Below are positions 1 through 28,779 of a stretch of DNA of 32,172 bases, piece by piece (position 1 is the stretch's first letter; every line of letters starts with the position of its first letter). Source of the stretch: Gemmatimonadales bacterium. Its GTDB lineage: Bacteria > Gemmatimonadota > Gemmatimonadetes > Gemmatimonadales > GWC2-71-9. The notes beneath the pieces were generated by a model. The model searched no databases and was not told the origin of the DNA. It saw only the letters and a list, made by a program, of their open reading frames with translations. Both the position numbers and the translations under genes were made by a program. The stretch lies in the NCBI GenBank assembly GCA_035635735.1, contig DASQAM010000281.1, forward strand, positions 1 to 32,172. The letters run 5' to 3'.

Positions 1-220
1 CGGCGTGCTCGATCCATCGTTCGGCATCCGCGAGTTCATCGTGGGGACGGGCGGGATGGGCACCAGCGCGGTCACCGCCGTGCAGCCCAACAGCGAGGTG
101 CGGAACCCCACCGTCTACGGGGTCATCAAGTTCGTCCTGAGCGCGGACGGCTACACTTGGCAGTTCATTCCCGCCGCGCCCAGCACCTTCACCGACTCGG
201 GCTCGGGAGCCTGTCATTGA
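1..220 (+). CDS. 3' end of a metallophosphoesterase-like protein (partial; 5' end outside the window; reading frame starts at nt 2)
   Basis: The C-terminal peptide ...YGVIKFVLSADGYTWQFIPAAPSTFTDSGSGACH resembles the conserved C-terminus of calcineurin-like metallophosphoesterases (YGVLKLTL..Y.W.F.P....FTDSG.G.CH). The stop TGA at 218-220 overlaps the TTG at 217 of the next gene. Confidence 0.5.
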   Translation, partial: GVLDPSFGIREFIVGTGGMGTSAVTAVQPNSEVRNPTVYGVIKFVLSADGYTWQFIPAAPSTFTDSGSGACH

Positions 221-3200
221 GCGCGCAGCGAGCAGCGACGACCGAGGCTCCCCCGCGGGACGCTGGTCTCACCCAGCGTACGCTCGCCGGGCTGGTGTGG
301 ACGGCGGGTGGGAGGGCGGTGTACGCCGTCCTCCGCCTCGTGGTCCTGTTTCTCCTGGCTCGGCTCGTCTCCCCCGCCGATTTCGGCGTGGTCGGCGCGG
401 CGACGGTCGTGCTGGGGTTCTCCGCCATCTTCTCGGAGCTGGGGATGGGGCCGGCGATCGTGCAGCGGCCCACGCTCGAGCTGCGGCACGAGCAGGCGGC
501 GTTCACTGCCTCCGTCGGCTTCGGCCTGGTGCTGGGAGCGATGCTCTGGGTGCTCGCTCCCCAGGTCGCGGGGTTCTTCCGCATCCCTGCCGTCGAGCCG
601 GTCCTGCGCACGTTTGCCTGGACGTTCCCGTTGGCCGGGCTGTCGCTGGTGGCGTACGCCGTGACGCAGCGAGCGCTGCGGTTCCGCTGGCTGGCCATCG
701 TCGACGTGGTGAGCTTCGGCGTCGGCTACGGAGTCGTCGGCGTCACCTTGGCGCTGCTCGGGTTCGGCGTGTGGGCCCTGGTAGCGGCGGAGATGTCCAA
801 GGTGGGAGTGTACACCGCCATCCTGCTGGTCGCGCACCCGCCGCGCGTCTCGCTCCGGCCGGATCGCCAGGCGTTCGCGGAGCTCATGTATTACGGCGGC
901 GGCTTCACGGTCTCCAAGGTCGCCAATTACCTGGCCCTGCAGCTCGACAACGTCATCGTGGGCCGCTGGCTCGGCGCAGTCGCCCTGGGTTTCTACGGGC
1001 GCGCGTACGAGCTGATGGCCGCAGCCCCGGCCCTGTTGGGCGAGCCCGTAGATAAGGTGCTGTTCCCCGCCATGGCCACGCGGCAAGGCGACATGCGGTC
1101 CCTCGCAGCCGCCTTTCGCCGCGGCGTCGCGACGATGGCGCTCATCACGCTGCCGCTCAGCGCGCTGCTCGTGGTCCTCGCCCCCGAGGCCGTCCCCGCG
1201 CTGCTGGGGCCCAAGTGGACGCCCGTCATCGTCCCCTTCCAGATCCTCACGCTCGGGATCTTCTTGCGCACGAGCTATCGGATCAGCGACGTCGTGGCGC
1301 GCGCCACCGGCGCGGTGTATCGCCGGGCGTGGCGGCAGGCCATCTACCTGGCGTGCGTGGTCGCGGGCGCCTGGTTCGGACGGCATTGGGGCATCGCGGG
1401 CGTGGCCTTGGGCGTGCTCGGCGCGCTCGCGGTGAACTACTTGTTGATGGCCCACCTCGGGCTGCGCCTGGCCGGGCTCAGCTGGCGCCGCTTCGGGCAA
1501 GCGCATCTGCACGCCCTGCTGACGGCCGCGGTGGTCGCCGTCCTGGTGGGGGGGTTGGCAGGGCTACTGCGCGCCTGGGCCCTGCCCCCCGTGGCCGTGC
1601 TGGTTACGGCGGGAGTGGTGGGGCTGGGCGGCACGCTCCTGCTGGTGTGGGCGGCCCCGCAGGCGTTCCTCGGGGCCGATGGACTCTGGGTGCTGCGCCA
1701 GGTCCGCGAGTTCGTCTCGAGCCGTGGCGCGTCCCGCTCCACGGTGCCGCCCGCGGCTGCACCACTTACCGCGGACCGGCCGTTGCTGTCGCTGGTGCGG
1801 CGCCTCGGCGAGGCGCTGGCGCGTGAGGGCATCTCCTACTGTTACTGTCAGTGGAAGGGCCACACCAAGCCCCACCGTTGGGGGACCGGTGCAGGGGACA
1901 TCGACCTGCTCGTGGACCCCCCCGATAAGACGCGGTTCGTGGGGGTGCTCACGCACCTGGGCTTCATCGCCGCCTTGGCGCCGCGGCCCCAACGGCTGCC
2001 GGGCGTCGAGAGCTATTTCGGGCTGGACCGCGGCACAGGCACGCTCGTCCATGTGCACCTGCACGAACGGCCGTTCATCGGGCGTCCCTGGTCGGCCGCG
2101 TGGGCCCTGCCGATGGAAGGCCTCTTCCTCGCTTCGGCCGCACGGGGCTCCGTGTTCCGCATCCCGGCTCCCGAAATCGAGCTGATCGCCCTCGTGGTCC
2201 GGACGGTCGAGCGGTACCGCCTGGCGACCGCCCTGCGGCGCCGCCCACCCGACTGGTCCGACGCGGTTCAGCAGGAGCTGGCGGACCTCGAGGCACGGAG
2301 CGATCCGACCAGACTGGCCCGAGCTCTCGAGCAGGTGCCGTTCCTGGACGCACCCTTCTTCGAGGCGTGCCGGCGTTCGCTGCGACCGGACTGCTCGACG
2401 CGGACGCGCGTGTTGCTGCGGTGGCGGCTGCTCCGCCGCCTCCGGACGAACGTGGTACGGCCCCCGATCGCGTTCGCCTTCCTGAGCTTGCTGCGTCGCG
2501 CCCGCACACTGGCGGGAGGACCCGGCGCTACCGCAAAGCGACTCGCCCGGCGCGGGGTGGTGATCGCACTCGGCGGGGCGGACGGCGCGGGCAAGTCGAG
2601 CTGCACGCGGGAGCTTCACGCCTGGCTCGCTCCCACGTTCGAGTGCGCCGCATTTCACCTGGGTCGACCGCCACGCTCGTTCCTGACGTTCGTAGTGGGC
2701 GCCGCACTGTGGGGTCGGACGCTGCTGCGGCGACTGGTCGGCCTTGCGCCCCCGGCCTGGCCGTCGCGCAACGAAATTCCGACGGGCCGCACGCCCGACG
2801 CGCTCGAGCTGCTGCGTCATGTGTGTACCGCGCGCGACCGCTACCGACTCGCGCTCAAGGCGAAACGCCTGGCGGCAGAGGGCGCATTCGTACTGTGCGA
2901 GCGCTACCCGAACATCACCACGCTGGCCGGGCCAAGCATCGAACAGCAGCAGTATCGCATGCCACAGACCGGAGTGGCCAGGTGGCTGGTGTCGACGGAG
3001 GTCGCGTACTACCAGGAGATGCCGGCGCCGGACGTGGCGGTGCTGCTCCTGGTCGAGCCGAAGCTCGCGGTGCGGCGCAAGCACGGCCAGGAGCCTGCCG
3101 CCTACGTGAAATATCGCGCCCAGCTCGTGGCGCAAAGCGACTGGACCAACAGCGGCGTCCAGGTGGTGGACGCGAACCGCCCCTTGGCAGAAGTCGTCCG

Positions 3201-3969
3201 GGACCTCCAATGCGTGATATGGTCGACGGTGTCCGGCGCGAAGTCCCGGAACAGCCTGATCTGGTCGGGGCCATCGCTGCCAGACTCCCCGCCGCCCGCT
3301 CCCCCCGCTCCACACGCCCCGGTCGTCGAGCTGGTCGGGCCGGCAGGCGTAGGTAAGAGCGCGGTAGCGGACGCCCTGCGGGACCATGACGGGACGCTGC
3401 GGGTCAGCATCTGGGGGCTGCCGTTGTCGTCGCTGCTGTGGAGCGCCGCAGCCCTGCTGCCCACTTTCGTCGCCCTGAGCGTCGCCGCACGGGCTGTCCG
3501 CTGGCCGGAGCTGAAGCAAATGATCCGTCTGAGCGCCCTGGGCCGCGTCTTGCCGCGGGCGGCGGAGGGTCGGAGCCTCGTCGTGCTCGACGAAGGGCCG
3601 GTGTTCGCCCTGGCCTGGCTTCAGGTCTTCGGCGCCGAGCGGCTGCTTCGCAGCGCGGCCTACGAGCACTGGGTCCATCGGACGCTGGCCGCCTGGGCGC
3701 ACGTGATCGACGCGGTGGTGGTGGTGGACGCCCCGGATCCCGTCCTGTCGCAGCGGATCCGCACCCGCGTGAAGCCGCACATGGTCAAAGACCGAAGCGA
3801 CGAGGAGATCACCGCGTTCGTGGCGCGGTTCCGGGCCGCGTTCGCGTCGGTGATTTCGGCCGTCACGGGCCTGAACGGCACGAAGCACCTTACGGTTCGC
3901 GCCGACCTCGAGACGCCGCACCAGCTGGCGGCGCGGGTGCGCCAAGCCGCCCTGGGAGGCGCTTCGTGA
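217..3969 (+). CDS. Multidomain fusion: Wzx/MOP-family polysaccharide flippase + PF14907-like nucleotidyltransferase + thymidylate-kinase-like P-loop domain + second P-loop NTPase/kinase-like domain
   Basis: One uninterrupted frame. The track ORF is 157-3969; TTG at 217 is preferred as the start because it forms a TTGA overlap with the upstream stop, so the start is uncertain. The N-terminal ~470 aa are multi-TM with flippase-like motifs (LARLVSPADFGVVG, GMGPAIVQ). Pro/Ala-rich linkers then separate the cytoplasmic domains. Confidence 0.8.
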   Translation: MSAQRAATTEAPPRDAGLTQRTLAGLVWTAGGRAVYAVLRLVVLFLLARLVSPADFGVVGAATVVLGFSAIFSELGMGPAIVQRPTLELRHEQAAFTASVGFGLVLGAMLWVLAPQVAGFFRIPAVEPVLRTFAWTFPLAGLSLVAYAVTQRALRFRWLAIVDVVSFGVGYGVVGVTLALLGFGVWALVAAEMSKVGVYTAILLVAHPPRVSLRPDRQAFAELMYYGGGFTVSKVANYLALQLDNVIVGRWLGAVALGFYGRAYELMAAAPALLGEPVDKVLFPAMATRQGDMRSLAAAFRRGVATMALITLPLSALLVVLAPEAVPALLGPKWTPVIVPFQILTLGIFLRTSYRISDVVARATGAVYRRAWRQAIYLACVVAGAWFGRHWGIAGVALGVLGALAVNYLLMAHLGLRLAGLSWRRFGQAHLHALLTAAVVAVLVGGLAGLLRAWALPPVAVLVTAGVVGLGGTLLLVWAAPQAFLGADGLWVLRQVREFVSSRGASRSTVPPAAAPLTADRPLLSLVRRLGEALAREGISYCYCQWKGHTKPHRWGTGAGDIDLLVDPPDKTRFVGVLTHLGFIAALAPRPQRLPGVESYFGLDRGTGTLVHVHLHERPFIGRPWSAAWALPMEGLFLASAARGSVFRIPAPEIELIALVVRTVERYRLATALRRRPPDWSDAVQQELADLEARSDPTRLARALEQVPFLDAPFFEACRRSLRPDCSTRTRVLLRWRLLRRLRTNVVRPPIAFAFLSLLRRARTLAGGPGATAKRLARRGVVIALGGADGAGKSSCTRELHAWLAPTFECAAFHLGRPPRSFLTFVVGAALWGRTLLRRLVGLAPPAWPSRNEIPTGRTPDALELLRHVCTARDRYRLALKAKRLAAEGAFVLCERYPNITTLAGPSIEQQQYRMPQTGVARWLVSTEVAYYQEMPAPDVAVLLLVEPKLAVRRKHGQEPAAYVKYRAQLVAQSDWTNSGVQVVDANRPLAEVVRDLQCVIWSTVSGAKSRNSLIWSGPSLPDSPPPAPPAPHAPVVELVGPAGVGKSAVADALRDHDGTLRVSIWGLPLSSLLWSAAALLPTFVALSVAARAVRWPELKQMIRLSALGRVLPRAAEGRSLVVLDEGPVFALAWLQVFGAERLLRSAAYEHWVHRTLAAWAHVIDAVVVVDAPDPVLSQRIRTRVKPHMVKDRSDEEITAFVARFRAAFASVISAVTGLNGTKHLTVRADLETPHQLAARVRQAALGGAS
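268..1671 (+). other. Domain: Wzx-like (Polysacc_synt / MOP) flippase, about 12-14 TM segments
   Basis: Hydrophobic segment pattern and the conserved N-terminal motif of polysaccharide biosynthesis flippases. Boundaries are approximate. Confidence 0.75.
1774..2256 (+). other. Domain: uncharacterised nucleotidyltransferase (PF14907 / NTP_transf_5-like)
   Basis: Motif GISYCYCQWKGHTKPHRWGTGAGDIDLLVDPPD matches the family pattern (h-h-h-K-G....G.DIDLLV). It parallels ...IEFLFAKAFQHYPDLGGDLDLLVLAR in the standalone gene 5913-6968. Boundaries are approximate. Confidence 0.55.
2548..3231 (+). other. Domain: thymidylate-kinase-like P-loop kinase
   Basis: Walker A IALGGADGAGKSS (nt 2572-2598). An ERY motif (FVLCERYPN) sits where Tmk has DRY. 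The layout parallels the standalone kinase 5255-5941. Boundaries are approximate. Confidence 0.6.
3316..3966 (+). other. Domain: second P-loop NTPase/kinase-like domain
   Basis: Walker A LVGPAGVGKSAV (nt 3337-3360) and Walker-B-like LVVLDEGP. It is preceded by the proline-rich linker PDSPPPAPPAPHAP. Confidence 0.5.
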
Positions 3970-5261
3970 AGACGACCGCCACGGCGTCGCTGCACCCGGC
4001 GATCCGCTGGGCGTTTTACGTGTTCATCCTCTCGCTCCCGTTCGAGTATCCCAGGCGAAGCATTCCCTGGGAGACCACCACCATCACGTGCGCGGTGTTC
4101 CTGTTCGCCGCCCTGTTCCAGGCGCGGCTCTGCTTCCGACGGTTCCCGGCGGCGGTCGCATGGTTCGGAGTATTCCTGTACGCCTGTCTCTTGTCGTTCG
4201 CCGTCAACGGCGGCGAGTATGCCGACGAAGTGCAGCGGATGCTCATCCTGCAGGTGCAACTGGCCCTGCTGCTCTGGGCCGGCTACAACGTGCTGCTCGA
4301 CGAGGAAGTGTTCCGCCTGGCCCCGCTCATGCTCGCGGTGGCGTGCGTGGCACGCGCGGCGCTGCAGGTGTCCGACATCGGGACCTCGCACGACGAAGAG
4401 TGGTACGGTGGCGAGCGCGTTTCCGCACTGGGGCAAAACGCCAATCACAGCGCCATGATCATGACCGCCGGGCTCCTGGCCCTGATCGGGCTCGCCTATG
4501 CCCGCTCCAGCGGCCGGCGCGGCTGGCGGGCGCTGATCTGGCCGTTCGCCGCGCTGATCGCCCTCGCGATCCTCCAGAACGGCTCTCGCGGCGGCGTGAT
4601 CGCCCTCGGGACGGGACTGCTCACGTTTGCGCTGGGCGGGTCGGGGGTGCGGGCGCGCATCCGCAACACCCTCGCCGTCGCGCTGGCGCTCGGCCTCGTG
4701 ACGTGGGCTTCCTACAATAACGAAGGGCTGCGCAACCGCTTCAAGCAGTCCATGGTCGCCGGCGCGATGGCGGGGCGGGAGCGGGTGTACCCGGAGCTGG
4801 TGCGAATGTTCGTCGAGCGGCCGATCGTCGGGTACAGCCCCATGGCCAACAAGTACGTGCTGGGAGGACGGCTGCCGGAGCAGCACTATACCCGGCGCGA
4901 CGCGCATAACCTGATGCTGGAAGTCATGACCTCCACCGGGATCGCCGGGCTGATTCCGTTCACCGTGGTGCTGGGGCTCGTCTGGCGCGCCGCTTGGCGG
5001 GCTCGGCGCGGCCCCGACGGCATCCTGCCGCTCGCGATGCTGGTGGGCGTGCTGACGGCCAACCTGAGCGGCAACTGGATCGCCGCGCCGTTGCTGTGGT
5101 TCACCTTCGCCTACGCGCTCGCGAGCGAACGGGCATCCGGCCGGGTGGCTCCGGTCGGGCACTCGGGTGTGCAGCGGCGCAGCCGCTCCTTCCGCTCTGC
5201 GGGACAGCGGCGCACGCCGCAACCGGCCCGGCTCGATGAAGCGGTGGTCGAGCGGTGCTGA
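3966..5261 (+). CDS. O-antigen ligase / Wzy-like polymerase family membrane protein
   Basis: GTG at 3966 forms a GTGA overlap with the upstream stop; the track ORF 3438-5261 has a spurious Arg/Gly-rich N-terminal extension. The protein is multi-TM with Wzy_C-type motifs (LQNGSRGGVIALGTGLL; RRDAHNLMLEVMTSTGIAGLIPF). Confidence 0.8.
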   Translation: MKTTATASLHPAIRWAFYVFILSLPFEYPRRSIPWETTTITCAVFLFAALFQARLCFRRFPAAVAWFGVFLYACLLSFAVNGGEYADEVQRMLILQVQLALLLWAGYNVLLDEEVFRLAPLMLAVACVARAALQVSDIGTSHDEEWYGGERVSALGQNANHSAMIMTAGLLALIGLAYARSSGRRGWRALIWPFAALIALAILQNGSRGGVIALGTGLLTFALGGSGVRARIRNTLAVALALGLVTWASYNNEGLRNRFKQSMVAGAMAGRERVYPELVRMFVERPIVGYSPMANKYVLGGRLPEQHYTRRDAHNLMLEVMTSTGIAGLIPFTVVLGLVWRAAWRARRGPDGILPLAMLVGVLTANLSGNWIAAPLLWFTFAYALASERASGRVAPVGHSGVQRRSRSFRSAGQRRTPQPARLDEAVVERC

Positions 5262-5941
5262 TCACCTTCTCGGGTCTCGACGGAGCCGGCAAGTCCACGC
5301 TGATCGAGTGGCTCAGGGACACGCTCGAGCGACAGAATCACCCCGTCGCCGTGTTCCACATGAACGATCATGTGGGTGCCTACGCGTACCTGCGGGCGCT
5401 GCGGGATCGCTGGTTCGGCGGGCCGCCGGCGGCGCCGGACGCCGATGGCGACGCGGGTGCTCCAGCGGCGCGGTCCAGTCTACGGGAGCGCATCTGGCGC
5501 CTCCGCATCGCCATCGTCTGGAACAAGCCACTGCGGCGCTTGCTCTATCTCTTCGACCTGGTGGTGTTCTGGTGCTACCGCCTCCGGATCGAAACGGCGC
5601 AACGGCGGATCCTGATCATGGACCGCTACTTCTACGACACCCTCGTGGACGTCTCGGACGGTCGGCACTGGTTCTGGATTCGGCTGCTGGAGCGGATCAC
5701 GCCGACCCCGGAAGTGCCGGTGCTCCTCGACATCAGCCCCGAGGAATCGTTCAACCGGAAGGGAGAATACTCGGTCGAATACCTGCGGGCGCGCTGGGTC
5801 GCCTACCGGACGGTCTTCCCGTGGGTTCGCGCAGCGGTCACGCTTCCCAATCGCGACCTGAGCGCAGCGAAGGCCGCGCTGCGGACGATCGTGATGGAGC
5901 GGTTGGGGGACAATGGGGAGGCCGCCGAACGTGCGCGATGA
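5255..5941 (+). CDS. Thymidylate-kinase-like P-loop kinase
   Basis: The GTG start overlaps the upstream stop (GTGCTGA). N-terminus is LITFSGLDGAGKSTLIEWL (Walker A) and a DRY motif is present (ILIMDRYFYDTL). Confidence 0.75.
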   Translation: MLITFSGLDGAGKSTLIEWLRDTLERQNHPVAVFHMNDHVGAYAYLRALRDRWFGGPPAAPDADGDAGAPAARSSLRERIWRLRIAIVWNKPLRRLLYLFDLVVFWCYRLRIETAQRRILIMDRYFYDTLVDVSDGRHWFWIRLLERITPTPEVPVLLDISPEESFNRKGEYSVEYLRARWVAYRTVFPWVRAAVTLPNRDLSAAKAALRTIVMERLGDNGEAAERAR

Positions 5942-6968
5942 ACGTGCGCAGGCACGCCTCCTGCTGCGGCTGCTGCTGAACGGCGATCGCCCGCCCATCG
6001 CGCGCGTGGACTGGCCTGCCCTGCTCCACCTGGCCCGCACCAACGGCGTCGTGATCCGCAGCGCCGACCTGTTGATGGCGCAGAACGTGACGCTGCCGCC
6101 GGCCTTCGCGAACAGCGTGGTGCGGGAGCGGCAGCGCGTGCAGGACGCGATCGGCCTGGTGCGCCAGGTCAGCCGGATCTGCACCGCGCACGGGATCGAG
6201 TTTCTGTTCGCCAAGGCGTTTCAGCACTACCCCGACCTGGGCGGCGACCTCGATCTGCTCGTGCTGGCTCGCGCCGCGGAAGTGGACGCCCTGCTCGCTC
6301 GCGAGCTGTCAGCCACCGTCGCGCCCCGGGATCTCGCCGGCTGGGTCGCCGGGAGCGTCACCTTCCGCGTTCGCGACGGGCTGCCGCCCCTGGACGTGCA
6401 ACATGGACGGATCGGGGCCGTCGGTGAACACCGGGCGTACGCCGTCGCGCTCGTGCGGAATCACCGGCAGATCGTGATCGACGGAACCGAGTGCGCGGTG
6501 CCCTGGCCGGAAGACCAGATCGTGCTCCAAGGCGTGCAGCGGATCTACGGGCGTCGGTCCCTGCGGTTGTCCGACGTCGCGTACACGATCGCGTCCCTGC
6601 GCGATCCGCTCGACTGGCCGTACGTCCTCAGCACGGCCCGCCGCATCGGCGTGCTGCCCGGCTTGGGCTGCTACCTGAGCTACGTCGAGCAGATCCACGG
6701 CGAGCTGTTCGGTGGCCCGCTCGTCCCGCAGCAGGTGCGCGACCGCCTGCCGCTCGCGGGGTGGGGCCGGGTGGAGTTCATGCGCGGGGCGTATCGGTTC
6801 CCGGCGCTGCGCGTGAACGCGCGGCTGTACCTCAAGCAGTTGGTCGCCGGGCTGTGGACCGCAAACTGGGATCGCGCGGCGCGATTGTGCCTGCTGCCGC
6901 TCGTGGGCGCGGCGCTGGCGGCCGGGCGCGTCGGCGCCGTGTCGTCGCGCTCGCTGGAGTCCGCGTGA
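5913..6968 (+). CDS. Uncharacterised nucleotidyltransferase (PF14907 / NTP_transf_5-like)
   Basis: Start is ATG 5913 or the in-frame GTG 5931; both overlap the upstream gene end (5941). Motif IEFLFAKAFQHYPDLGGDLDLLVLARAAEVDALL. It ends in a GTGA overlap with the next gene. Confidence 0.65.
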   Translation: MGRPPNVRDERAQARLLLRLLLNGDRPPIARVDWPALLHLARTNGVVIRSADLLMAQNVTLPPAFANSVVRERQRVQDAIGLVRQVSRICTAHGIEFLFAKAFQHYPDLGGDLDLLVLARAAEVDALLARELSATVAPRDLAGWVAGSVTFRVRDGLPPLDVQHGRIGAVGEHRAYAVALVRNHRQIVIDGTECAVPWPEDQIVLQGVQRIYGRRSLRLSDVAYTIASLRDPLDWPYVLSTARRIGVLPGLGCYLSYVEQIHGELFGGPLVPQQVRDRLPLAGWGRVEFMRGAYRFPALRVNARLYLKQLVAGLWTANWDRAARLCLLPLVGAALAAGRVGAVSSRSLESA

Positions 6969-8173
6969 GCACCGCGCGCACGGCCGATTTCCTGATCGTC
7001 GGTGGCGGCGTCATCGGCCTCACGATCGGCCTGGAGTTGAAGCGCCGCCGTCCGGACGCAGCCGTCACGCTGATCGAGAAGGAGGACGCCTGCGGTATGC
7101 ACGCGAGCGGGCGCAACAGCGGCGTGCTGCATGCCGGCTTTTACTATACGGCGGACTCGCTGAAGGCCCGCTTCACCAAGGCGGGGAACCGCGCGTGGAG
7201 CGCCTATTGCGAAGCGCGCGGGCTCCGCATCAATCGCTGCGGCAAGCTGGTCGTGGCTCGCAGCGCCCAGGAGTTGGCCGGATTGGACGAGCTGTCGCGC
7301 CGGGCCCGGGCCAACGGCGTCGAGCTCGCGGCGCTCACCGCCGACGAGGCGCGTCGCATCGAACCGCGCGTGCGCACCCACGAGCGCGCGCTGTTTTCCC
7401 CGACCACGGCCTCGGTAGACCCCGCTGAGCTGATCGCGGCGCTGACGACCGACGCGCTCGCGCTCGGCCTCACGATCCGCACCGCGACCGCGTACCGCGG
7501 GACGACGCGAGGGGCCGTACGGACTTCCGCTGGACGGTTTGCCGCCGGCTACGTGATCAACGCCGCGGGGCTGTATGCCGATCGCATTGCCCGCGACTAC
7601 GGCTTCGGCGAGCGGTACCGCATCCTGCCGTTCCGCGGCCTGTACCTCCAGGGCAACGGCGGCAGTCGGCCGCCGCGGACGCACGTCTATCCGGTGCCGG
7701 ATCTTGGGCAGCCGTTCCTGGGTGTGCATTTCACCGTCACGGTCACCGGCCACGCGACGATCGGGCCCACGGCCATTCCCGCGTTCTGGCGCGAGCACTA
7801 CGGCGGGATGGCGAACTTCGACCCGCGCGAGTGCGCGGAAATCCTCGCCTGTGAGGCGGGCCTGCTGCTCTCCAACGAGGGTGATTTTCGGTCACTGGCG
7901 TGGAGCGAGGTGCGCAAGTACAGCCGGCGCCGGCTGGTCCGCCTCGCCGCCGAGCTGGTGGAAGGGACGGAGCCCGCGGCGTATCGCCGCTGGGGCCCCG
8001 CGGGGATCCGCGCGCAGCTGTTCGATCGCCAGACCCGCAGGCTCGAGATGGATTTCCGCTACGAGGGCGACGACCGCTCCTTCCACGTGCTCAACGCCGT
8101 GTCGCCGGGCTTCACCTGTGCCCTGCCCTTCGCGGCCCACGTGACCGACTGCATCGAGCGGCTCCGCGCATGA
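6965..8173 (+). CDS. lhgO: L-2-hydroxyglutarate oxidase-like FAD-dependent oxidoreductase (DAO family)
   Basis: GTG 6965 forms a GTGA overlap; the track ORF 6491-8173 is N-terminally over-extended. Motifs: FLIVGGGVIGLTIG (FAD Rossmann), HASGRNSGVLHAGFYYTADSLKA, ILPFRGLY, YPVPDLGQPFLGVHFT, PAGIRAQL, NAVSPGFT. From memory these run colinear with E. coli LhgO/YgaF along the whole length. Confidence 0.75.
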   Translation: MSTARTADFLIVGGGVIGLTIGLELKRRRPDAAVTLIEKEDACGMHASGRNSGVLHAGFYYTADSLKARFTKAGNRAWSAYCEARGLRINRCGKLVVARSAQELAGLDELSRRARANGVELAALTADEARRIEPRVRTHERALFSPTTASVDPAELIAALTTDALALGLTIRTATAYRGTTRGAVRTSAGRFAAGYVINAAGLYADRIARDYGFGERYRILPFRGLYLQGNGGSRPPRTHVYPVPDLGQPFLGVHFTVTVTGHATIGPTAIPAFWREHYGGMANFDPRECAEILACEAGLLLSNEGDFRSLAWSEVRKYSRRRLVRLAAELVEGTEPAAYRRWGPAGIRAQLFDRQTRRLEMDFRYEGDDRSFHVLNAVSPGFTCALPFAAHVTDCIERLRA

Positions 8174-9420
8174 TCTCGGCCCCCGCCCTCGTGGCGCCTC
8201 CGTCGCTCGCGCGCGAGCGCGTGCTGGTGCTGGACGCCCACACCAACCAGGCGCTGGCATGCGCCCGCTCGCTCGGCCGCGCCGGTCACGAGGTGTTCGT
8301 CGCGAGCCATCGGTTGTGGCCGCTCGCCGCCTGGTCGACCTATTCCCGCGGCCGGTTCCGGCTGGCGGGCGAGTCGGTCGAGGCGTTCGCCGAGCTGCGC
8401 GCCTGGGCGGGCGAGCGTGGCGTGACGGTCGTGCTGCCGCTCACCGAGCGCGCCTGCCTGCTCTGCAACGCGGAGCGCCACGCATGGGAGGCCCTGGGCA
8501 TCGTGGTGGGGTGCGGCCCGGACGAAATGTTGCTGCGGGCATTCGACAAGGCGGAGACGGCGCGCTACGCCACGGCCAGCGGCGCCGCGCTGCCCCCGAC
8601 CAAGGCGCCCCGATCGCTCGCCGAGTGCCGGGCGGCGGCCCAAGCGGTGGGCTTTCCCTGCGTCGTCAAGCCGCGGTTCAGCAACGTCCACGATGGCTTC
8701 GTGTTCCAGCCGGGAGAGTCGGCGCGCTACGTCGGCCATCCGGACCAGCTCGACGCAGCGATCGAAGCGACGCGACAGGGCGATCGCTGGCCCCTGATTC
8801 AGGGATTCGTGCCCGGCGCGGGCAAGGGGGTGTTCGCGCTGTGTAACCACGGCGAAGCCGTGGCCTGGTTCGCCCACGAGCGGTTGCGGGACGTCCGCCC
8901 GTCGGGCTCCGGCAGCAGCTTGCGCCGGGCCATCGCGCTCGACCCGCGGCTGCGCGCGCCGGCGGAGCGTCTGCTGCGCCAGATGCAATGGCACGGCCCG
9001 GCGATGGTCGAGTTCCGCGACGACGGTGTCAACGCACCGTACCTGATCGAGGTGAACGGCCGTTTCTGGGGCTCGCTACAGCTCGCCGTCTCGGCCGGCG
9101 TGGATTTTCCGCACCTCTGGCTGGCGCTGCTCCGCAATCACAGGCTCCCCCCCTCCCGCGGCTACGTCGAGGGCGTGACGCTGCGGTGGCTCTGGGGAGA
9201 CGTGAAACGCTTCCTCTACATCCTCGCCGGGGCACCGCGGGGGTATCCGGGTCCCTACCCGAGCGTCTGGCAAGGTGTGCGGGAGCTGTTGGGCCCGCAG
9301 CCGCGAGGCACCCTGAACGAAACCTGGACCGCCGGCGACCGCTGGCCCGTCCTAGGGGAGGTCGTCCAAGGGGTGCGCGAGCTCGTGATCCGGTTGCTGC
9401 GGCGCGGCGCGCCGCCCGTC
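8170..9420 (+). other. Domain: ATP-grasp
   Basis: Motifs FPCVVKPRFS..., GFVPGAGKGVFAL, MVEFRDDG..PYLIEVNGRFWGSL (E-x-N). Boundaries are approximate. Confidence 0.75.
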
Positions 9421-11577
9421 CCCGCGCCGGTGTCCATGGATGCGTCCCACGCCCTGCGCGTCCTCATGCTCACGCCTGACTGGCCCACGCCGGATCGCCC
9501 CCGCACGACCAATTTCATCAAGCGCCAGGCGGAAGCGCTGCGGGCCGCGGGGGCCCATATCGACGTCTTCCATTTCGCCGCCGAGCAGCGGCTCTGGAAC
9601 TATCTGCGCGCGTGGCGCGCCGTGCGCCGCCGCCTCGCCACGGGACGCTACGACCTCGTCCACGCCCAATTCGGGCAGAGCGGCCTCGTGGCGTTGCCCA
9701 AACGCGTACCTCTCGTGGTCACGTTCCGCGGCAGCGACCTGTTGGGCATCGTGAGCGACAAGACCGGCCGTCATACCTGGCGGGGCCGCGTGGCGCAGCG
9801 GTGTTCCCGCATGGTTGCGCGCCTGGCGGACGCCGTGATCGTGGTGTCCGAGCACATGAAGGCGCAGCTCCCCGCCGCCGTGCGCCCGACCGTGATCCCG
9901 TCCGGCCTCGACCTGAAGCTGTTTCATCCGATTCCCCGCGACGAGGCGCGGCGGCGGCTGGGGTGGTCGCCCGGCCGGCGCGTCGTGCTGTTCGTCGGCC
10001 GACCGTTTCAAGCACGCAAGCGGCACAGCCTCGCTCGCGATGCAGTGGCGCTCCTCAACCGCTCCCTCCCCGCAGAGCTGGTGGTCGCCTGGGGCGTGCC
10101 CCACACCGAGATGCCGGTCTACATGAGCGCGGCCGACGTGCTGGTCTGCACGTCGATGCAAGAAGGGTCTCCCAACGTCGTCAAAGAAGCACTCGCGTGC
10201 GATCTGCCGGTGGTCTCGGTGCCCGTGGGGGACGTGGCGCTGCGTCTCCAGGGGGTCGCGGGATGCGAGCTGTGCGCCGACGACCGGCCCGAGACGATCG
10301 CCGCCGCGCTCGAGCGCGTCCTGCGCCGCGACCAACGCATCGACGGTCGCGACGCAGTCCGACCGCTGGACGAGGAGTTGCTGACCCAGCAGGTCCTGGA
10401 CATCTACCGGTCGGTCGTCAACGGTCACGCCCTCGACCGGCGAGGGCTCGGGAAGGGCCGCTTGACGGTACGCAAGGCGTCGCCGTCCGAAGAGCTCGAG
10501 TGGAACACGTTGGTGCAGCGGTTCGACCACTGCCGCATCGCCCATACGCGCGCGTGGCTCCGCTCGCTCGAAGCCTCCGGCTGCGGCCAGCCACTCTACC
10601 TCGTGTTCGAGCGGGATCACGAGATCGTAGGCTGTCTGCCCGGTCTCCTGGTGCGGTTCGGCCCGCTCCGCTTGTTCGGCTCCCCATTGCCGGGGTGGCA
10701 AACCGTCAGCATGGGTCCGGTGTTCGACGAGCGCCGGGTTTCTGCGGCGGACCTCGTCGCCACGCTGGTGCCGTTCCTCCGTCACCGCTACGGCATCCAC
10801 CACATCGAGCTGATGTGCAGCCATCTGGATCCCGCTGCCATGCAGGCCGCGGGCTTCCGGGGCGACGCCGTCACCACCTACCGGGCGCCGCTCGCTGCGG
10901 ACGAGGCCACGACGATGAAGGCCATGAAGGACAGCACGCGGCGCAATGTGCGACGCGCGATCAAGCTCGGCCTCGTCACCCGATTCGAAACCGAGGAGTC
11001 CTTCGTGGACGAGCACTACTCCCAGATCAAGGAAGTCTACGCCCGCCGCGGCTTCAGCGTGCCGTTCGGTAAACGGCGGGTGCTGGAGTTCTTTCGCCAC
11101 ATGAAGGCAGCCGGCAGCCTGCTGGCAATCGCCGTCTACCTCGAAGACGGGGGGCCGTGCATCGCGACGGGCATGTTCACCGTGCACGGCCGCGAGCTGC
11201 TGCTGTCGATGTGGACCCATCGCACCCGGTACCGCTGGTACCGGCCGACGGAGCTGATGACGTGGACGGTCATGCAAAAGGCGATGGCGCTGGGGTGCGA
11301 CAACTTCGATTTGATGGGCCGCGGTGATTTCAAGGCCAAGTTCGGCGCGACCCCGGACGCGAGCAAGCGCCGTTGGGTGTGGAGCCGTTACGCCTGGCTC
11401 ACCGCGGCGCGCGATCTGGCCGAGAAGGGCTACCGCTGGCAGCAAGGCATCCGCGGCCGCTTGGCCCGGCTGACGTCCACATCCCTGCCGCCCAGCCCGG
11501 TCGAAGCCGGCCAGGTGGAGGATGAGCAGCCTGCGCGGTCGCCCAGCCGCGTCCCCGTGGAGACCACCCATGCGTGA
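8170..11577 (+). CDS. Tri-domain fusion: ATP-grasp ligase + GT1 (GT4-like) glycosyltransferase + FemAB/CelD-like GNAT (PF13480-type) acyl/aminoacyl-transferase
   Basis: ATG 8170 forms an ATGA overlap with the lhgO-like stop; the track ORF 7900-11577 is over-extended. One uninterrupted frame of 1135 aa, with short Pro/Gly-rich linkers between the domains. Confidence 0.8.
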   Translation: MISAPALVAPPSLARERVLVLDAHTNQALACARSLGRAGHEVFVASHRLWPLAAWSTYSRGRFRLAGESVEAFAELRAWAGERGVTVVLPLTERACLLCNAERHAWEALGIVVGCGPDEMLLRAFDKAETARYATASGAALPPTKAPRSLAECRAAAQAVGFPCVVKPRFSNVHDGFVFQPGESARYVGHPDQLDAAIEATRQGDRWPLIQGFVPGAGKGVFALCNHGEAVAWFAHERLRDVRPSGSGSSLRRAIALDPRLRAPAERLLRQMQWHGPAMVEFRDDGVNAPYLIEVNGRFWGSLQLAVSAGVDFPHLWLALLRNHRLPPSRGYVEGVTLRWLWGDVKRFLYILAGAPRGYPGPYPSVWQGVRELLGPQPRGTLNETWTAGDRWPVLGEVVQGVRELVIRLLRRGAPPVPAPVSMDASHALRVLMLTPDWPTPDRPRTTNFIKRQAEALRAAGAHIDVFHFAAEQRLWNYLRAWRAVRRRLATGRYDLVHAQFGQSGLVALPKRVPLVVTFRGSDLLGIVSDKTGRHTWRGRVAQRCSRMVARLADAVIVVSEHMKAQLPAAVRPTVIPSGLDLKLFHPIPRDEARRRLGWSPGRRVVLFVGRPFQARKRHSLARDAVALLNRSLPAELVVAWGVPHTEMPVYMSAADVLVCTSMQEGSPNVVKEALACDLPVVSVPVGDVALRLQGVAGCELCADDRPETIAAALERVLRRDQRIDGRDAVRPLDEELLTQQVLDIYRSVVNGHALDRRGLGKGRLTVRKASPSEELEWNTLVQRFDHCRIAHTRAWLRSLEASGCGQPLYLVFERDHEIVGCLPGLLVRFGPLRLFGSPLPGWQTVSMGPVFDERRVSAADLVATLVPFLRHRYGIHHIELMCSHLDPAAMQAAGFRGDAVTTYRAPLAADEATTMKAMKDSTRRNVRRAIKLGLVTRFETEESFVDEHYSQIKEVYARRGFSVPFGKRRVLEFFRHMKAAGSLLAIAVYLEDGGPCIATGMFTVHGRELLLSMWTHRTRYRWYRPTELMTWTVMQKAMALGCDNFDLMGRGDFKAKFGATPDASKRRWVWSRYAWLTAARDLAEKGYRWQQGIRGRLARLTSTSLPPSPVEAGQVEDEQPARSPSRVPVETTHA
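9454..10416 (+). other. Domain: GT1-family glycosyltransferase
   Basis: LRVLMLTPDWPTP...FIKRQAEALRAAG and an EX7E motif (MQEGSPNVVKEALAC). By-eye alignment suggests about 70% aa identity to the standalone GT1 at 12772-13827. Confidence 0.8.
10462..11430 (+). other. Domain: FemAB/CelD-like GNAT (Acetyltransf_6-type)
   Basis: The pattern EWNTLV....AHTRAWLRSLE...YLVFERDHEIVGCLPG...MKDSTRRNVRRAIKLG...YRPTELMTWTVMQKAMALGCDNFDLMG is the same architecture as the standalone gene 15675-16700. Boundaries are approximate. Confidence 0.6.
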
Positions 11578-14883: not shown

Positions 14884-15678
14884 TTGTCCACGCGCACACC
14901 GCGGATCGCGAGCTTCGGCTACCACGAGGTGACGGACGATCCCACGATGTCGGGCTTCCAGCGGCCGGCCGCTCTCCCGTTCAAGCACACGCCCCGTGCG
15001 TTTGCCGAGCACCTCGCGACTGTCGCCGCCGGACCGTTCGTCCCCGGCCTCATCGGGGATATCGACTTCACCCGCCCCGGCCGGCACGTCCTGCTCACCT
15101 TCGACGACGGGGGTAAGAGCGCCGTTTACGTCGCGGACCAGCTGTCCCGGCGGGGGTGGAGGGGGCACTTCTTCATCGTCACCAGCTTGATTGGCACCCG
15201 CACGTTCCTCGATGCGGCGGACATCCGGTACCTGCGTAGCAGCGGCCATGTCGTCGGCAGCCATTCGCACACCCACCCCGACATCTTTCGCGACGAGACG
15301 CCCCAGCGGATGATCGAGGAGTGGCGCACGAGCTGCGGGATCCTGGCCGACCTGCTGGGCGAGCCGTGCAGCATAGCCTCGGTGCCCGGCGGCGACATCT
15401 CGACCGCCGTGCTGCGCTCGGCGGCGCCCGCCGGCCTGCGCTACCTGTTCACGTCCGAGCCGTGGACGGCGCCCCGACAAATGAACGGCACCTGGATCCT
15501 CGGGCGCTTCGGCCCGAAGGTCGGTACGTCTCCGGCTCGTGTGGGCGCGCTCGTGCGGTTCCACGGCTGGCAGAGCGCCCTCCTCGAGCGTCGCCTGAAA
15601 GGGGTGGTGCGGCGCAGTCTTCCGGCCCTGTACCGCTTCTACGTCCGGCGCACTACCCAGGACTGGGTGCCTCAATGA
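14884..15678 (+). CDS. Polysaccharide deacetylase (CE4 / NodB-homology)
   Basis: TTG start with GAGGAG 8 nt upstream (14871-14876). Motifs LLTFDDGG and GSHSHTHP. Confidence 0.8.
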   Translation: MSTRTPRIASFGYHEVTDDPTMSGFQRPAALPFKHTPRAFAEHLATVAAGPFVPGLIGDIDFTRPGRHVLLTFDDGGKSAVYVADQLSRRGWRGHFFIVTSLIGTRTFLDAADIRYLRSSGHVVGSHSHTHPDIFRDETPQRMIEEWRTSCGILADLLGEPCSIASVPGGDISTAVLRSAAPAGLRYLFTSEPWTAPRQMNGTWILGRFGPKVGTSPARVGALVRFHGWQSALLERRLKGVVRRSLPALYRFYVRRTTQDWVPQ

Positions 15679-21153: not shown

Positions 21154-21166
21154 ACAGGGAGCACCC

Positions 21167-25710: not shown

Positions 25711-25738
25711 AAAATCCATTCCTCGATTCGGGTCCGCC

Positions 25739-28750: not shown

Positions 28751-28779
28751 CACACGCCCTCGACGGGTCTAAAGGCGAA

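Follow-up and report, generated by a model that had tools for sequence, protein, structure and literature searches.

We identified a single gene in a 32,172-nucleotide stretch of a Gemmatimonadales MAG contig (DASQAM010000281.1; hereafter, the window) that was shown to be a fusion of four neighbouring genes of a Wzx/Wzy PEP-CTERM-type exopolysaccharide locus. Its protein product consists of a Wzx flippase, a PF14907-like nucleotidyltransferase (NTase), a thymidylate kinase (Tmk)-like domain (Kin1) and a second P-loop kinase domain (Kin3), in the order given by the first-pass annotation of this DNA, and all motifs quoted in that annotation were found where it had placed them. This fusion in a soil bacterium, together with the occurrence of the same parts beside flippase genes in many phyla, points to an unstudied ATP-using step in the building of surface polysaccharides. 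The gene and its parts are as follows.

217..3969, + strand: whole fused gene, Wzx plus NTase plus Tmk-like kinase plus dNK/AK-like kinase, 1250 aa plus stop
217..1656, + strand: MOP/PST flippase (Wzx) domain, aa 1-480, ~14 TM helices, predicted N-in/C-in
1657..1776, + strand: cytoplasmic tail and Pro/Ala-rich linker 1, STVPPAAAPLTAD, aa 508-520
1777..2541, + strand: PF14907-like Pol-beta-type NTase domain with helical extension, ~aa 521-775 (WKG aa 546-548, D561-I-D563, D604, H614)
2542..3246, + strand: thymidylate-kinase-fold domain Kin1, ~aa 776-1010 (P-loop GGADGAGKSS, HLGRPPRS, TARDRY, CERY, LID AVRRK)
3247..3321, + strand: linker 2, PDSPPPAPPAPHAP at aa 1022-1035
3322..3966, + strand: nucleoside/nucleotide-kinase-fold domain Kin3, aa 1036-1250 (P-loop GPAGVGKS, LDEGP, LID RIRTRVKPH)

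The open reading frame extends from TTG codons at 157 or 217 to 3969 on the + strand without an in-frame stop, as had been claimed for the flippase and the soluble domains. Note that the length of the frame alone is no proof, because, at 70% GC, the fused gene is overlapped on the antisense strand by spurious frames as long as 793 aa. These long opposite-strand frames, as well as the existence of the parts as separate genes in close relatives, speak for an artefact, in which the frame would have stayed open by chance in GC-rich DNA, or separate genes would have been merged by a mis-assembly or frameshift. However, third-position GC (GC3) was uniform in one frame (0.81-0.95 from ~300 to ~3900), and this signal shifted to other frames before ~220 and after ~3970. 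Furthermore, the 1250/1216-aa product was present on at least 10 independently assembled contigs from four sources (NCBI, ENA, JGI and Logan), the four-domain layout was kept in at least seven homologues of 56-74% identity from other lineages, and the linkers are in frame, with no Shine-Dalgarno (SD) sequence plus in-frame start codon when the region of linker 1 was scanned. An artefact is very improbable against this evidence; the homologues and the many independent assemblies confirmed that the gene is a genuine, conserved fusion rather than chance read-through, as the first-pass annotation had supposed. Translation from TTG 217 gives a product of the same length as NCBI HYR98909.1, in the same 90% cluster. 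This start codon follows a GGAG at a distance of 7 nt and shares bases with the stop codon of the preceding gene (TTGA); likewise, the stop codon at 3967-3969 shares bases with the GTG at which the Wzy gene downstream starts (GTGA).

The flippase domain is a member of the MOP/PST family by profile cut-off. Specifically, PF13440 matched aa 46-338 with E=1.8e-72 and 244.5 bits (cut-off 23), PF01943 matched with 111 bits (cut-off 28.2), and NF007773 ('MOP flippase family protein') aligned aa 18-477 with positions 3-464 of its 492, at 178 bits, which is under the equivalog cut-off of 273. Membership is also indicated by genomic context, namely the Wzy_C gene that overlaps the stop and the GT2, GT4, deacetylase and AsnB genes downstream. 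The closest unfused Wzx orthologues are 500-520 aa long. A manual hydropathy model contained 14 TM segments, the last ending at ~aa 480 (nt ~1656; ~1670 in the first-pass annotation), with 19 Lys and Arg residues (plus 4 in the tail) inside and 3 outside. The fused soluble domains are thereby predicted to lie in the cytoplasm, consistent with the even TM count and the positive-inside bias and in line with the earlier claim of a cytoplasmic C-terminus; this placement is also implied because the soluble domains would use ATP. Pro/Ala-rich linkers had been reported between the domains, and two stretches indeed behave as variable linkers whose length and sequence differ among the fused homologues, but the NTase and the first kinase are not separately linked. 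In a close relative, locus L048, the gene boundary after Wzx lies at the place equivalent to linker 1, and L048, L004 and L003 have a gap between genes at the position of linker 2.

Profile searches bore out the domain names in part, giving strong matches for the flippase, whereas the NTase, Kin1 and Kin3 of the window all scored under Pfam cut-offs, with family-level matches for the NTase and Kin1. Because of these scores, assignment of the soluble domains relies on family-level evidence and on AlphaFold/Foldseek, which recovered a Tmk fold for Kin1 and a nucleoside/NMP kinase fold for Kin3. The NTase domain scored 14-16.5 bits against PF14907 (cut-off 31.2) and is thus outside the family by Pfam cut-off, and 95 of its 102 homologues matched PF14907 at E<0.01 (best E=1.6e-8). 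The motif GAGDIDLLV is located at aa 558-566 (nt 1888-1914), and the Pol-beta signature is complete, with W-K-G(548), 12 residues, D561-I-D563 and then D604; the Lys, the DxD and the third Asp were invariant in 19 sequences from at least eight phyla and also in a 102-sequence alignment (A1). An hhalign comparison paired the fused GDIDLLV with GDLDLLV of the separate PF14907 gene at 5913-6968, with weak statistics. The strand and helix order of the AF2 model (pLDDT ~90) was compatible with an NTase core. A profile search of PDB sequences with the NTase domain alone gave no relative at E<=10, and the top 50 Foldseek matches for the NTase-Kin1 pair were all Tmk matches to Kin1, so that this list was saturated for the NTase half. 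The NTase fold is assigned from motifs, family-level Pfam matches and predicted secondary structure.

Kin1 carries its P-loop GGADGAGKSS at aa 786-795 (nt 2572-2601) and CERY at aa 894-897. It scored 16-20 bits against PF02223 (cut-off 27), which matched 76 of the 102 homologues, and its scores of 17 bits against TIGR00041 (cut-off 83) and 22.8 against PRK07933 (cut-off 193) place it outside these NCBIfam Tmk profiles. Its top 50 Foldseek matches were all thymidylate kinases (2plr, E=7.7e-8; target-normalised TM-score 0.56-0.72), and the GxDGxGKS P-loop, RDRY, ERY and the Arg and Lys of the LID were invariant in 102 sequences, as expected for a Tmk fold. In a transitive alignment via P0410 to the P. 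falciparum TMPK, with an E-value of only 0.002, ARDRY was paired with SANRW and CERY with CDRY, both acceptor-phosphate arginines of Tmk were aligned in Kin1, and the position of the base-stacking Phe of Tmk ('LLF-SANRW') was taken by a Cys that is shared by 92 of the 102 sequences. Because both arginines align while the stacking Phe is a Cys, a phosphate ester other than dTMP is the probable acceptor of Kin1. The NTase and Kin1 formed one integrated two-domain unit in the AF2 model (pTM 0.88; hereafter, the module), and the same unit occurs as a standalone protein of ~490 aa in over a thousand clusters. The family comprises ~1400 50%-identity clusters at E<=1e-30, is uncharacterised, and consists mostly of free-standing soluble proteins.

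Kin3 has its P-loop GPAGVGKS at aa 1041-1048 (nt 3337-3360) and VVLDEGP at aa 1122-1128. It scored 25.5 bits against AAA_33 (cut-off 27) and is not a member by this cut-off; a Nostoc homologue matched AAA_33, Tmk and dNK. The AF2 model (pLDDT 93.6) was matched by Foldseek to AbmG (8j5g, E=6.8e-6), AK (6ln3), dCK and dAK, with E ~1e-5 and TM 0.5-0.6, indicating a nucleoside/NMP kinase fold with a Walker A motif and an Arg-rich LID. Residues G22, G25, G27, K28, D106-E-G-P109, R161, R165 and R187 were invariant in 115 sequences, and standalone homologues of 220-275 aa adjoin the module in many phyla. With catalytic motifs preserved in each of the three, the soluble domains most likely represent enzymes, not relics. 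We also considered the hydrophobic helices after each P-loop as a mark of lipid binding; this was rejected, as they are amphipathic, carry conserved Arg/Lys and resemble ordinary sub-domain helices.

We then compared the gene with other loci. In L048, Wzx (62% identical), NTase-Tmk, the P-loop kinase and Wzy are encoded by individual genes that follow one another in the order of the fusion and overlap or adjoin, and in L039 and L040 the module lies directly 3' of Wzx. Fusions of Wzx and the module (P0059/60/64, P0274 and P0368), of Wzx and Kin3 (P0414), of a phosphoglycosyl transferase (PGT) and the module (P0110 and P0276), and of the module and Kin3 (P0328 and P0410) were all found, indicating that the architecture in the window belongs to a set of interchangeable fusions among conserved neighbours. 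Gemmatimonadota, Methylobacter marinus A45 and other phyla share the gene order PGT, module, Kin3, ..., flippase, Wzy; in Nostoc linckia, the module adjoins Kin3, and a PGT and a Wzc-type gene lie close by on the other strand. Altogether, the module sits in Wzx/Wzy polysaccharide loci of at least eight phyla, with a MOP-type flippase within the flanks of 29 module loci and Wzy as its most conserved neighbour (26 of 44 loci). By Rosetta-stone logic, the alternative fusions suggest functional coupling. The first-pass annotation had proposed phosphorylation or nucleotidylation of the repeat unit in step with its export; since fusions with the initiating PGT exist as well, any coupling would be to the undecaprenyl-phosphate (Und-P)-linked assembly machinery in general rather than to export specifically.

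The genes on either side of the fusion are listed below.

2..220, + strand: 3' part of the preceding gene, encoding the C-terminal domain of a PKD/calcineurin-like metallophosphoesterase, with a stop codon that shares bases with TTG 217 (TTGA)
3966..5261, + strand: Wzy_C (O-antigen polymerase/ligase-like) gene, PF04932 E=1.4e-11, GGGAGG SD, GTGA overlap
5255..5941, + strand: standalone 228-aa Tmk-like kinase, which exceeds the PF02223 cut-off (35 bits against 27)
5913..6968, + strand: standalone 351-aa PF14907 nucleotidyltransferase, which exceeds the cut-off of that family (41 bits against 31.2)

BLAST with the upstream fragment retrieved PKD+Metallophos proteins encoded directly 5' of the module or flippase in L003, L006, L007 and L011. 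The standalone Tmk-like gene, which overlaps the PF14907 gene by 29 nt and probably belongs to the same chemistry as the fused domains, is also found in L046, L048, L002, L003 and L047, and the extra Tmk-like plus PF14907 pair in the window, L046, L003 and L048. Because the syntenic L046 keeps this pair and has a flippase without the fused NTase-Kin1, the latter is either dispensable or replaced by the standalone pair. The window also encodes a Big_2+PF04185 phosphoesterase, and L046 has a gene for a PF04185 phosphoesterase.

Our favoured reading is a cytoplasmic, ATP/NTP-dependent tailoring or activation of Und-P-linked intermediates. Specifically, the 14-TM Wzx would end in the cytoplasm, where a flexible linker would tether the integrated NTase/Tmk-fold unit and a second linker the dNK/adenylate-kinase-fold domain. 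The three enzymes together would be a conserved accessory to the Und-P-linked assembly line, which leads from PGT through glycosyltransferases to Wzx and Wzy, and would act with ATP/NTP on the cytoplasmic face before Wzx flips the lipid-linked repeat unit. For the dNK-like kinase, the acceptor would be a hydroxyl; for the Tmk-like kinase, in which both acceptor-phosphate arginines are kept and the thymine-stacking Phe is absent, it would be a phosphomonoester; and the Pol-beta-type NTase would transfer an NMP or a phospho-group. Fusion to Wzx, or to PGT in other lineages, would hold the enzymes at the membrane beside their substrate. That the three enzymes modify the lipid-linked repeat unit, or its phosphate head-group, with phosphate and/or a nucleotidyl/phospho-substituent is a tentative proposal, to which we give a chance just short of even. 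The genes for exported PKD-metallophosphoesterases in the window and in several related loci, and the PF04185 genes of the window and L046, are circumstantial support for phosphoester chemistry.

There is a modest chance that the kinases and NTase instead build an activated phospho-donor from a soluble small molecule, with a separate transferase decorating the glycan and the tether only raising local concentration. Activated donors are usually made by kinase and NTase pairs, as in the synthesis of PAPS by ATP sulfurylase and APS kinase, of CDP-choline by LicA and LicC, and of 3'-phospho-CDP-amidate by Cj1416 and Cj1415. The kinase folds match those of soluble nucleoside/NMP kinases, the extra standalone pair described above is consistent with such a pathway, and a Tmk-like plus PF14907 pair was reported to flank PEP mutase in the phosphonate gene-cluster family GCF 540, suggesting activation of a small-molecule phosph(on)ate (PMC8942020). 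However, the making of a soluble donor would not call for anchoring at the membrane, yet repeated and independent fusions have joined the module to two different membrane-integral enzymes that handle Und-P-linked substrates. Moreover, Pol-beta-type NTases usually nucleotidylate hydroxyl groups rather than make NDP-X, and no LicD-, EptA- or sulfotransferase-type transferase was found among the conserved neighbours.

A small chance is left to local recycling, in which the Tmk-like and AK/dNK-like domains would re-phosphorylate the UMP released by PGT and the NDPs released by glycosyltransferases, pulling initiation forward and regenerating NTP for the synthesis of sugar-nucleotides beside the assembly complex. 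Characterised members of both kinase folds phosphorylate nucleosides or NMPs, and Kin1 keeps the two Tmk arginines that bind the NMP phosphate; both folds are typical for nucleoside/nucleotide substrates, and recycling fits them equally well. The module is also often fused to, or directly 3' of, PGT, whose product is UMP and whose reactions are reversible and UMP-sensitive. On the other hand, the Pol-beta NTase with its invariant active site would have no part in recycling, Kin1 has a conserved Cys where Tmk has the Phe that stacks on thymine or uracil, and scores against the NCBIfam dTMP, CMP and adenylate kinase equivalogs were far under cut-offs. Bacteria already possess the housekeeping enzymes PyrH, Cmk and Ndk, and up to three such kinases plus two NTases per locus would be excessive. 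It is improbable, finally, that the soluble domains are a regulatory or scaffolding appendage that binds nucleotides, senses energy or nucleotide-sugar status, and gates the flippase or recruits partners. The MOP flippase MviN of M. tuberculosis, with its fused kinase-like regulatory domain, is a precedent (PMC12599244), and some syntenic loci (L046 and L047) do without the module; however, the Walker A Lys/Ser, the DRY-like Arg, the LID arginines, and the NTase DxD and third Asp are invariant in more than 100 sequences from many phyla, and most members of the NTase-kinase family are free-standing and soluble.

Compared with known systems, the N-terminal 480 aa resemble PST/MOP Wzx proteins such as E. 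coli WzxC in matching PF13440 and NF007773 and in adjoining Wzy_C. Canonical Wzx proteins are ~410-520 aa long and end after the last TM segment, whereas the fused protein has 770 extra, predicted cytoplasmic residues with three enzyme-like domains. As the first-pass annotation had suspected, no description of a Wzx joined to a PF14907-type NTase and two kinase-like domains was found in the searchable literature, and the only described precedent found for a flippase with a kinase-like domain was MviN (MurJ) of M. tuberculosis. Its fused cytoplasmic Hanks-type Ser/Thr pseudokinase does not bind ATP and docks FhaA in a phospho-dependent manner (PMC12599244). The two proteins are alike in that a MOP-superfamily flippase for lipid-linked glycans carries a C-terminal cytoplasmic kinase-like domain; the present domains, unlike that of MviN, have P-loop NMP-kinase and Pol-beta NTase folds, which are unrelated to Hanks kinases, and keep their catalytic motifs. 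In fact, no Pkinase-type Pfam match followed the flippase.

Kin1 shares with Tmk the fold, the G-x-D-G-x-G-K-S/T P-loop, the DRY-like E-R-Y, the second phosphate-binding Arg and the basic LID. Unlike Tmk, it has HLGRPPRS, an insertion of ~40 residues and a Cys for the base-stacking Phe, and is always fused to an NTase in polysaccharide loci, and its profile scores fall under the cut-offs. Kin1 is not a Tmk orthologue. The NTase shows the WK[GS]-x12-DxD...D pattern and the predicted alpha/beta core order of PF14907 (NTP_transf_5), a family for which no characterised member was found. It differs from canonical PF14907 proteins, one of which is encoded 2 kb downstream of the fused gene, as a divergent sub-family permanently joined to a Tmk-like domain. 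Kinase and nucleotidyltransferase-fold activities place phosphate-linked groups on envelope glycans in the LicA/LicC/LicD (phosphocholine) and Cj1415/Cj1416 (MeOPN) systems, and LpxK is a P-loop kinase that acts on a lipid-anchored sugar at the membrane. Note that LicC and Cj1416 are Rossmann-type rather than Pol-beta-type NTases, and that, to our knowledge, none of these enzymes is fused to a flippase or initiating transferase or has a sequence or profile relationship to the module.

The fused protein also resembles Wzc BY-kinases in being a predicted P-loop ATPase dedicated to a Wzx/Wzy polysaccharide pathway. BY-kinases belong to a MinD/ParA-like family, have a Walker A' motif, end in a Tyr cluster and include a fused PCP (GNVR) domain; the fused protein had no AAA_31, CbiA or GNVR match, and its C-terminus (…RVRQAALGGAS) has no Tyr cluster. 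Since the related loci L001, L033 and L046 carry a separate Wzc alongside the module, the module is an addition to Wzc, not a substitute for it.

The first-pass annotation had described an uninterrupted fusion gene at 217-3969 (+), and the reading frame (157/217 to 3969, +) indeed contained no in-frame stop, giving 1250 aa from the TTG start at 217. Since ORF length is poor evidence in GC-rich DNA, and the window (32,172 nt, ~70% GC) has spurious antisense ORFs as long as 793 aa across the fused gene, we examined codon-position composition. GC3 in the frame of the fused gene was 0.81-0.95 between about nt 300 and nt 3900; other frames took over on either side. The 793-aa antisense ORF at 1564-3945 (-), which spans most of the fused gene, showed the wrong codon-position GC pattern and was rejected as a by-product of the 70% GC. 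A GGAG lies 7 nt 5' of TTG 217, which shares bases with the stop codon that closes the gene before it (TTGA). At the other end, the fusion's stop forms a GTGA with the GTG start of the gene that follows, which is served by a GGGAGG Shine-Dalgarno sequence. No Shine-Dalgarno sequence with an in-frame start codon was found at the junctions (nt 1650-1800, 2450-2600 and 3230-3340), and internal starts that would yield separate proteins were rejected.

The same protein was found on at least 10 contigs across NCBI, ENA, JGI and Logan assemblies, its length being 1250 or 1216 aa according to which start is called, and an exact-sequence look-up showed that its 90% cluster includes NCBI HYR98909.1, an "oligosaccharide flippase family protein". 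When the C-terminal 760 aa were used as a query, seven full-length relatives (1201-1260 aa, 56-74% identity) kept the four-domain layout of flippase, nucleotidyltransferase (NTase), thymidylate kinase (Tmk)-like kinase (Kin1) and second P-loop kinase (Kin3), and two further relatives were incomplete, ending at contig ends. The motifs and both Pro/Ala linkers quoted in the annotation were located where it had placed them; the linkers varied in length and sequence among fused homologues and thus fit true inter-domain linkers. The GC3 pattern, recovery from independent assemblies and conservation in divergent homologues rule out a chance ORF or assembly artefact, a reading whose probability we consider negligible. 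The fusion is real, as first proposed, and not a read-through.

PF13440 matched the flippase over aa 1-480 (E=1.8e-72), and the NF007773 MOP flippase model spanned this domain end to end. Because a manual hydropathy model gave 14 TM helices, with 19 Lys/Arg (plus four in the tail) in predicted cytoplasmic loops versus three outside, the C-terminus of the fused protein is predicted to be cytoplasmic.

The proposed profile assignments held directly for the flippase; the window's own NTase and Kin1 (aa ~521-1010) scored below threshold for PF14907 and PF02223, yet their homologues matched these families (95 and 76 of 102, respectively; best PF14907 match 1.6e-8). An AlphaFold2 model built with the family alignment had a pLDDT of 90 and a pTM of 0.88, indicating that NTase and Kin1 form a single integrated two-domain unit. 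The 50 best Foldseek matches of this model in the PDB were all thymidylate kinases (E down to 7.7e-8, target-normalised TM-score up to 0.72), and among them no structural neighbour of the NTase was placed. In Kin1, the P-loop G-x-D-G-x-G-K, R-D-R (TARDRY), E-R-Y (CERY) and LID R-K were invariant. Transitive alignment via the homologue P0410 to P. falciparum TMPK paired SANRW with ARDRY and CDRY with CERY, indicating that both acceptor-phosphate arginines of Tmk are retained, and placed a conserved Cys where Tmk has the thymine-stacking Phe. For the NTase, W-K-[GS], the DxD pair (D561, D563) and a third Asp (D604) did not vary among 19 sequences drawn from at least 8 phyla, and the helix/strand order predicted by AlphaFold2 was compatible with a Pol-beta-type core. 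Searches of the PDB with an NTase-only profile (A3) returned no relatives at E<=10, a single-sequence search gave no match, and two other family profiles (A1, A2) matched P-loops only.

Kin3 (aa 1036-1250) was modelled with a pLDDT of 93.6, and Foldseek matched it to nucleoside/NMP kinases, namely AbmG, adenylate kinases, dCK and dAK (E about 1e-5, TM 0.5-0.6). Its Walker A motif, D-E-G-P and three LID/C-terminal arginines were invariant in 115 sequences. All three soluble domains retain their catalytic signatures. Note that the hydrophobic stretches after the P-loops (aa ~822-840 and 1063-1094) were considered as membrane anchors or polyprenol-binding lids and rejected, as family profiles showed amphipathic helices with conserved Arg/Lys/Asn, not TM segments, and supported no lipid-binding feature in them.

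The NTase-Kin1 unit belongs to a large, unnamed family: a full search of 1.84 billion representative proteins yielded 3724 matches at E<=1e-3, of which 1406 reached E<=1e-30, and standalone proteins of ~470-520 aa made up most of the 150 best matches listed. In a scan with one genome per species, the unit was found in Gemmatimonadales, Acidobacteriota, Chloroflexota, Planctomycetota, Bacteroidota, Actinomycetota (among others Blastococcus, Modestobacter and Aeromicrobium sp. Root495), Nostoc linckia FACHB-104, Methylobacter marinus A45 and an alphaproteobacterium. It occurs in at least 8 phyla, and the named Methylobacter, Nostoc, Blastococcus, Modestobacter and Aeromicrobium carriers are culturable strains. 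Kin3 also exists as a standalone protein of ~220-275 aa, usually encoded by the gene next after the unit, in several phyla. Standalone orthologues of the soluble parts lie at L018 7887-9470 and 9365-10192 in Methylobacter marinus A45 and at L033 7998-9515 and 9500-10294 in Nostoc linckia FACHB-104. Public databases label these proteins either "oligosaccharide flippase family protein" or "thymidylate kinase", or leave them as "hypothetical".

The window's fused gene is found split into its component genes in the homologous locus L048, where Wzx (510 aa) is followed by the NTase-kinase (469 aa, 8-nt overlap), a P-loop kinase (229 aa) and Wzy_C; this Wzx (P0418) is the closest unfused orthologue of the window flippase, at 62% identity. 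Other homologues carry different combinations: Wzx with the NTase-Kin1 unit and without Kin3 (P0059/60/64, P0274, P0368), Wzx with Kin3 and without the unit (P0414, 76% and 58% identical to the matching parts; its locus is syntenic with the window), the phosphoglycosyl transferase (PGT) Bac_transf with the unit (P0110, P0276), and the unit with Kin3 (P0328, P0410). The fusion joins genes that are neighbours elsewhere, in a set embedded in Wzx/Wzy loci across phyla, and its partners alternate between two membrane proteins that handle undecaprenyl-phosphate-linked sugars, the flippase and the PGT. A MOP-type flippase of either of two families was present in the flanks of 29 fetched loci, Wzy in 26 of 44 loci and a PGT in 16. 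The second flippase-like membrane family (~516-546 aa; L002 11476-13056, L004 12178-13818, L018 14207-15784 and others) accompanies the unit in many loci and has little or no Pfam signal; phmmer gave no cross-match between it and the window Wzx, indicating that the unit associates with two different MOP-like families. The main result thus reaches beyond this one fusion: the three-enzyme module is widespread, conserved, uncharacterised and part of Wzx/Wzy pathways, and in the 1250-aa protein it takes its most complete fused form.

The window itself is a Wzx/Wzy exopolysaccharide locus, with the following genes around the fusion:

2-220 (+): PKD/calcineurin-like metallophosphoesterase, C-terminal domain, partial
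3966-5261: Wzy_C
5255-5941 (+): standalone Tmk-like kinase, 29-nt overlap with the PF14907 gene
5913-6968 (+): standalone canonical PF14907 NTase
6968-8173 (+): FAD oxidase, inserted after the PF14907 gene and before the ATP-grasp fusion; 295.8 bits versus the cut-off of 299 for the L-2-hydroxyglutarate oxidase equivalog
7900-11577 (+): 1225-aa fusion of ATP-grasp (ATPgrasp_Ter), GT4 and FemAB-like/Acetyltransf_6
15678-16700 (+): FemAB-family XrtA/PEP-CTERM-associated protein (TIGR03019, 275 bits versus the cut-off of 260)
16904-18877 (+): CoA_binding_3 fused to an SDR epimerase/dehydratase instead of Bac_transf
21128-23179 (+): AsnB-type amidotransferase, best match the XrtA/PEP-CTERM amidotransferase, below its cut-off
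23149-25719 and 25739-28753 (-): two giant Ig-like repeat proteins (Big_2/Big_1/Invasin_D3)
Elsewhere in the window: further ATP-grasp, GT4 and GT2 genes; a polysaccharide deacetylase, a beta-helix protein and a methyltransferase

The standalone pair runs kinase then NTase, the reverse of the fused order. It recurs in L003 and in the syntenic locus L046, and L048 probably carries it too, with a second gene lacking a Pfam match. The pair may be a paralogue or a redundant duplicate of the fused unit; L046 retains it without the fused NTase-kinase, so the two may be redundant. When the fused domains were aligned with the pair by hhalign, alignments were sensible around the motifs, with probabilities of 3-41%, low because the templates were single sequences. 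L046 also lacks the FAD oxidase gene, has a 1132-aa counterpart of the ATP-grasp fusion, and shares the CoA_binding_3-SDR arrangement; CoA_binding_3 is the typical N-terminal domain of WbaP/WcaJ-type PGTs. The ATP-grasp fusion suggests a coupling between glycosyl transfer and the decoration of a sugar with amino acids or peptides. Judged by its gene content, the window looks like an exosortase-type EPS locus; no exosortase gene was found within it, and no Bac_transf PGT within its 32 kb, the contig beginning just 5' of the fusion. The Ig-like protein at 25739-28753 (-) has a C-terminal phosphoesterase domain of the phospholipase C/acid phosphatase family (PF04185), and a PF04185 gene also lies at the edge of L046. 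The upstream PKD-metallophosphoesterase is presumably exported, and genes of this kind lie directly upstream of the unit or flippase in other Gemmatimonadales loci (L003 1-363, L006 2733-7793, L007 1-345, L011 6757-7947).

The annotation's observation is thus confirmed, and its interpretation, a modification of the lipid-linked repeat unit in step with export, is supported in part. Our tentative preference is a modification by the three enzymes on the cytoplasmic side, before flipping, in which the lipid-linked repeat unit, or the phosphate head-group of that unit, receives a phosphate and/or nucleotidyl/phospho-group; the dNK-like domain would phosphorylate a hydroxyl, the Tmk-like domain would act on a phosphomonoester, and the Pol-beta NTase would transfer an NMP or phospho-group. 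Synthesis of a soluble activated phospho-donor, by a PAPS/CDP-X logic, seems unlikely; in its favour is the sole literature mention found, of a Tmk and PF14907 pair flanking a PEP mutase in phosphonate gene-cluster family GCF 540 (PMC8942020). It is quite unlikely that the module recycles UMP/NDP locally and thereby pulls the reversible PGT reaction. A regulatory appendage, like the pseudokinase of MviN (PMC12599244), is very improbable for domains with intact catalytic motifs.

A more specific version of action on the lipid-linked unit, "tag-then-flip", is a long shot. The module, tethered to the PGT or placed where Wzx opens to the cytoplasm, would transiently phosphorylate or nucleotidylate the completed Und-PP-linked unit, and the mark would license or drive flipping, then be kept as a phosphodiester decoration or removed outside by the exported PKD-metallophosphoesterases encoded immediately upstream. 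In the usual view, the flipping stage takes no energy input; such a mechanism would be a new ATP-coupled checkpoint in many Wzx/Wzy pathways.

Wzx/Wzy-dependent assembly is the commonest route to O-antigens, capsules and exopolysaccharides, and the catalogue of its cytoplasmic steps, with PGT, glycosyltransferases, tailoring enzymes and flippase, is generally regarded as complete. To this machinery belong three conserved nucleotide-handling enzymes, with intact catalytic motifs, that are repeatedly fused to the flippase or the initiating transferase. Modification of the lipid-linked unit by the module, if it occurs, would represent a new class of tailoring or licensing of glycans, and give a first biological role to PF14907 and to a large family mis-annotated as "thymidylate kinase". 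In addition, the fusion proteins are natural reagents to trap the flippase with enzymes acting just before it.

In literature searches on PF14907, Wzx with thymidylate kinase, and flippase with a fused kinase domain, no description of the four-domain architecture or of the module's role was found, in line with the first-pass remark that the architecture was not a described one. The only described MOP flippase with a fused kinase-like domain found in these searches is mycobacterial MviN, in which that domain is an inactive Hanks-type pseudokinase serving as a docking site (PMC12599244); both fold and logic differ from those of the fused protein. Kin3 is not a BY-kinase (Wzc), as ruled out by its fold family, the absent Tyr cluster and the separate Wzc in related loci. 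The fused NTase groups with PF14907, itself uncharacterised. Kin1 is Tmk-like and not a Tmk; it shares the fold but fails the profile cut-offs and lacks the base-stacking residue. The N-terminus of the fused protein is an ordinary Wzx.
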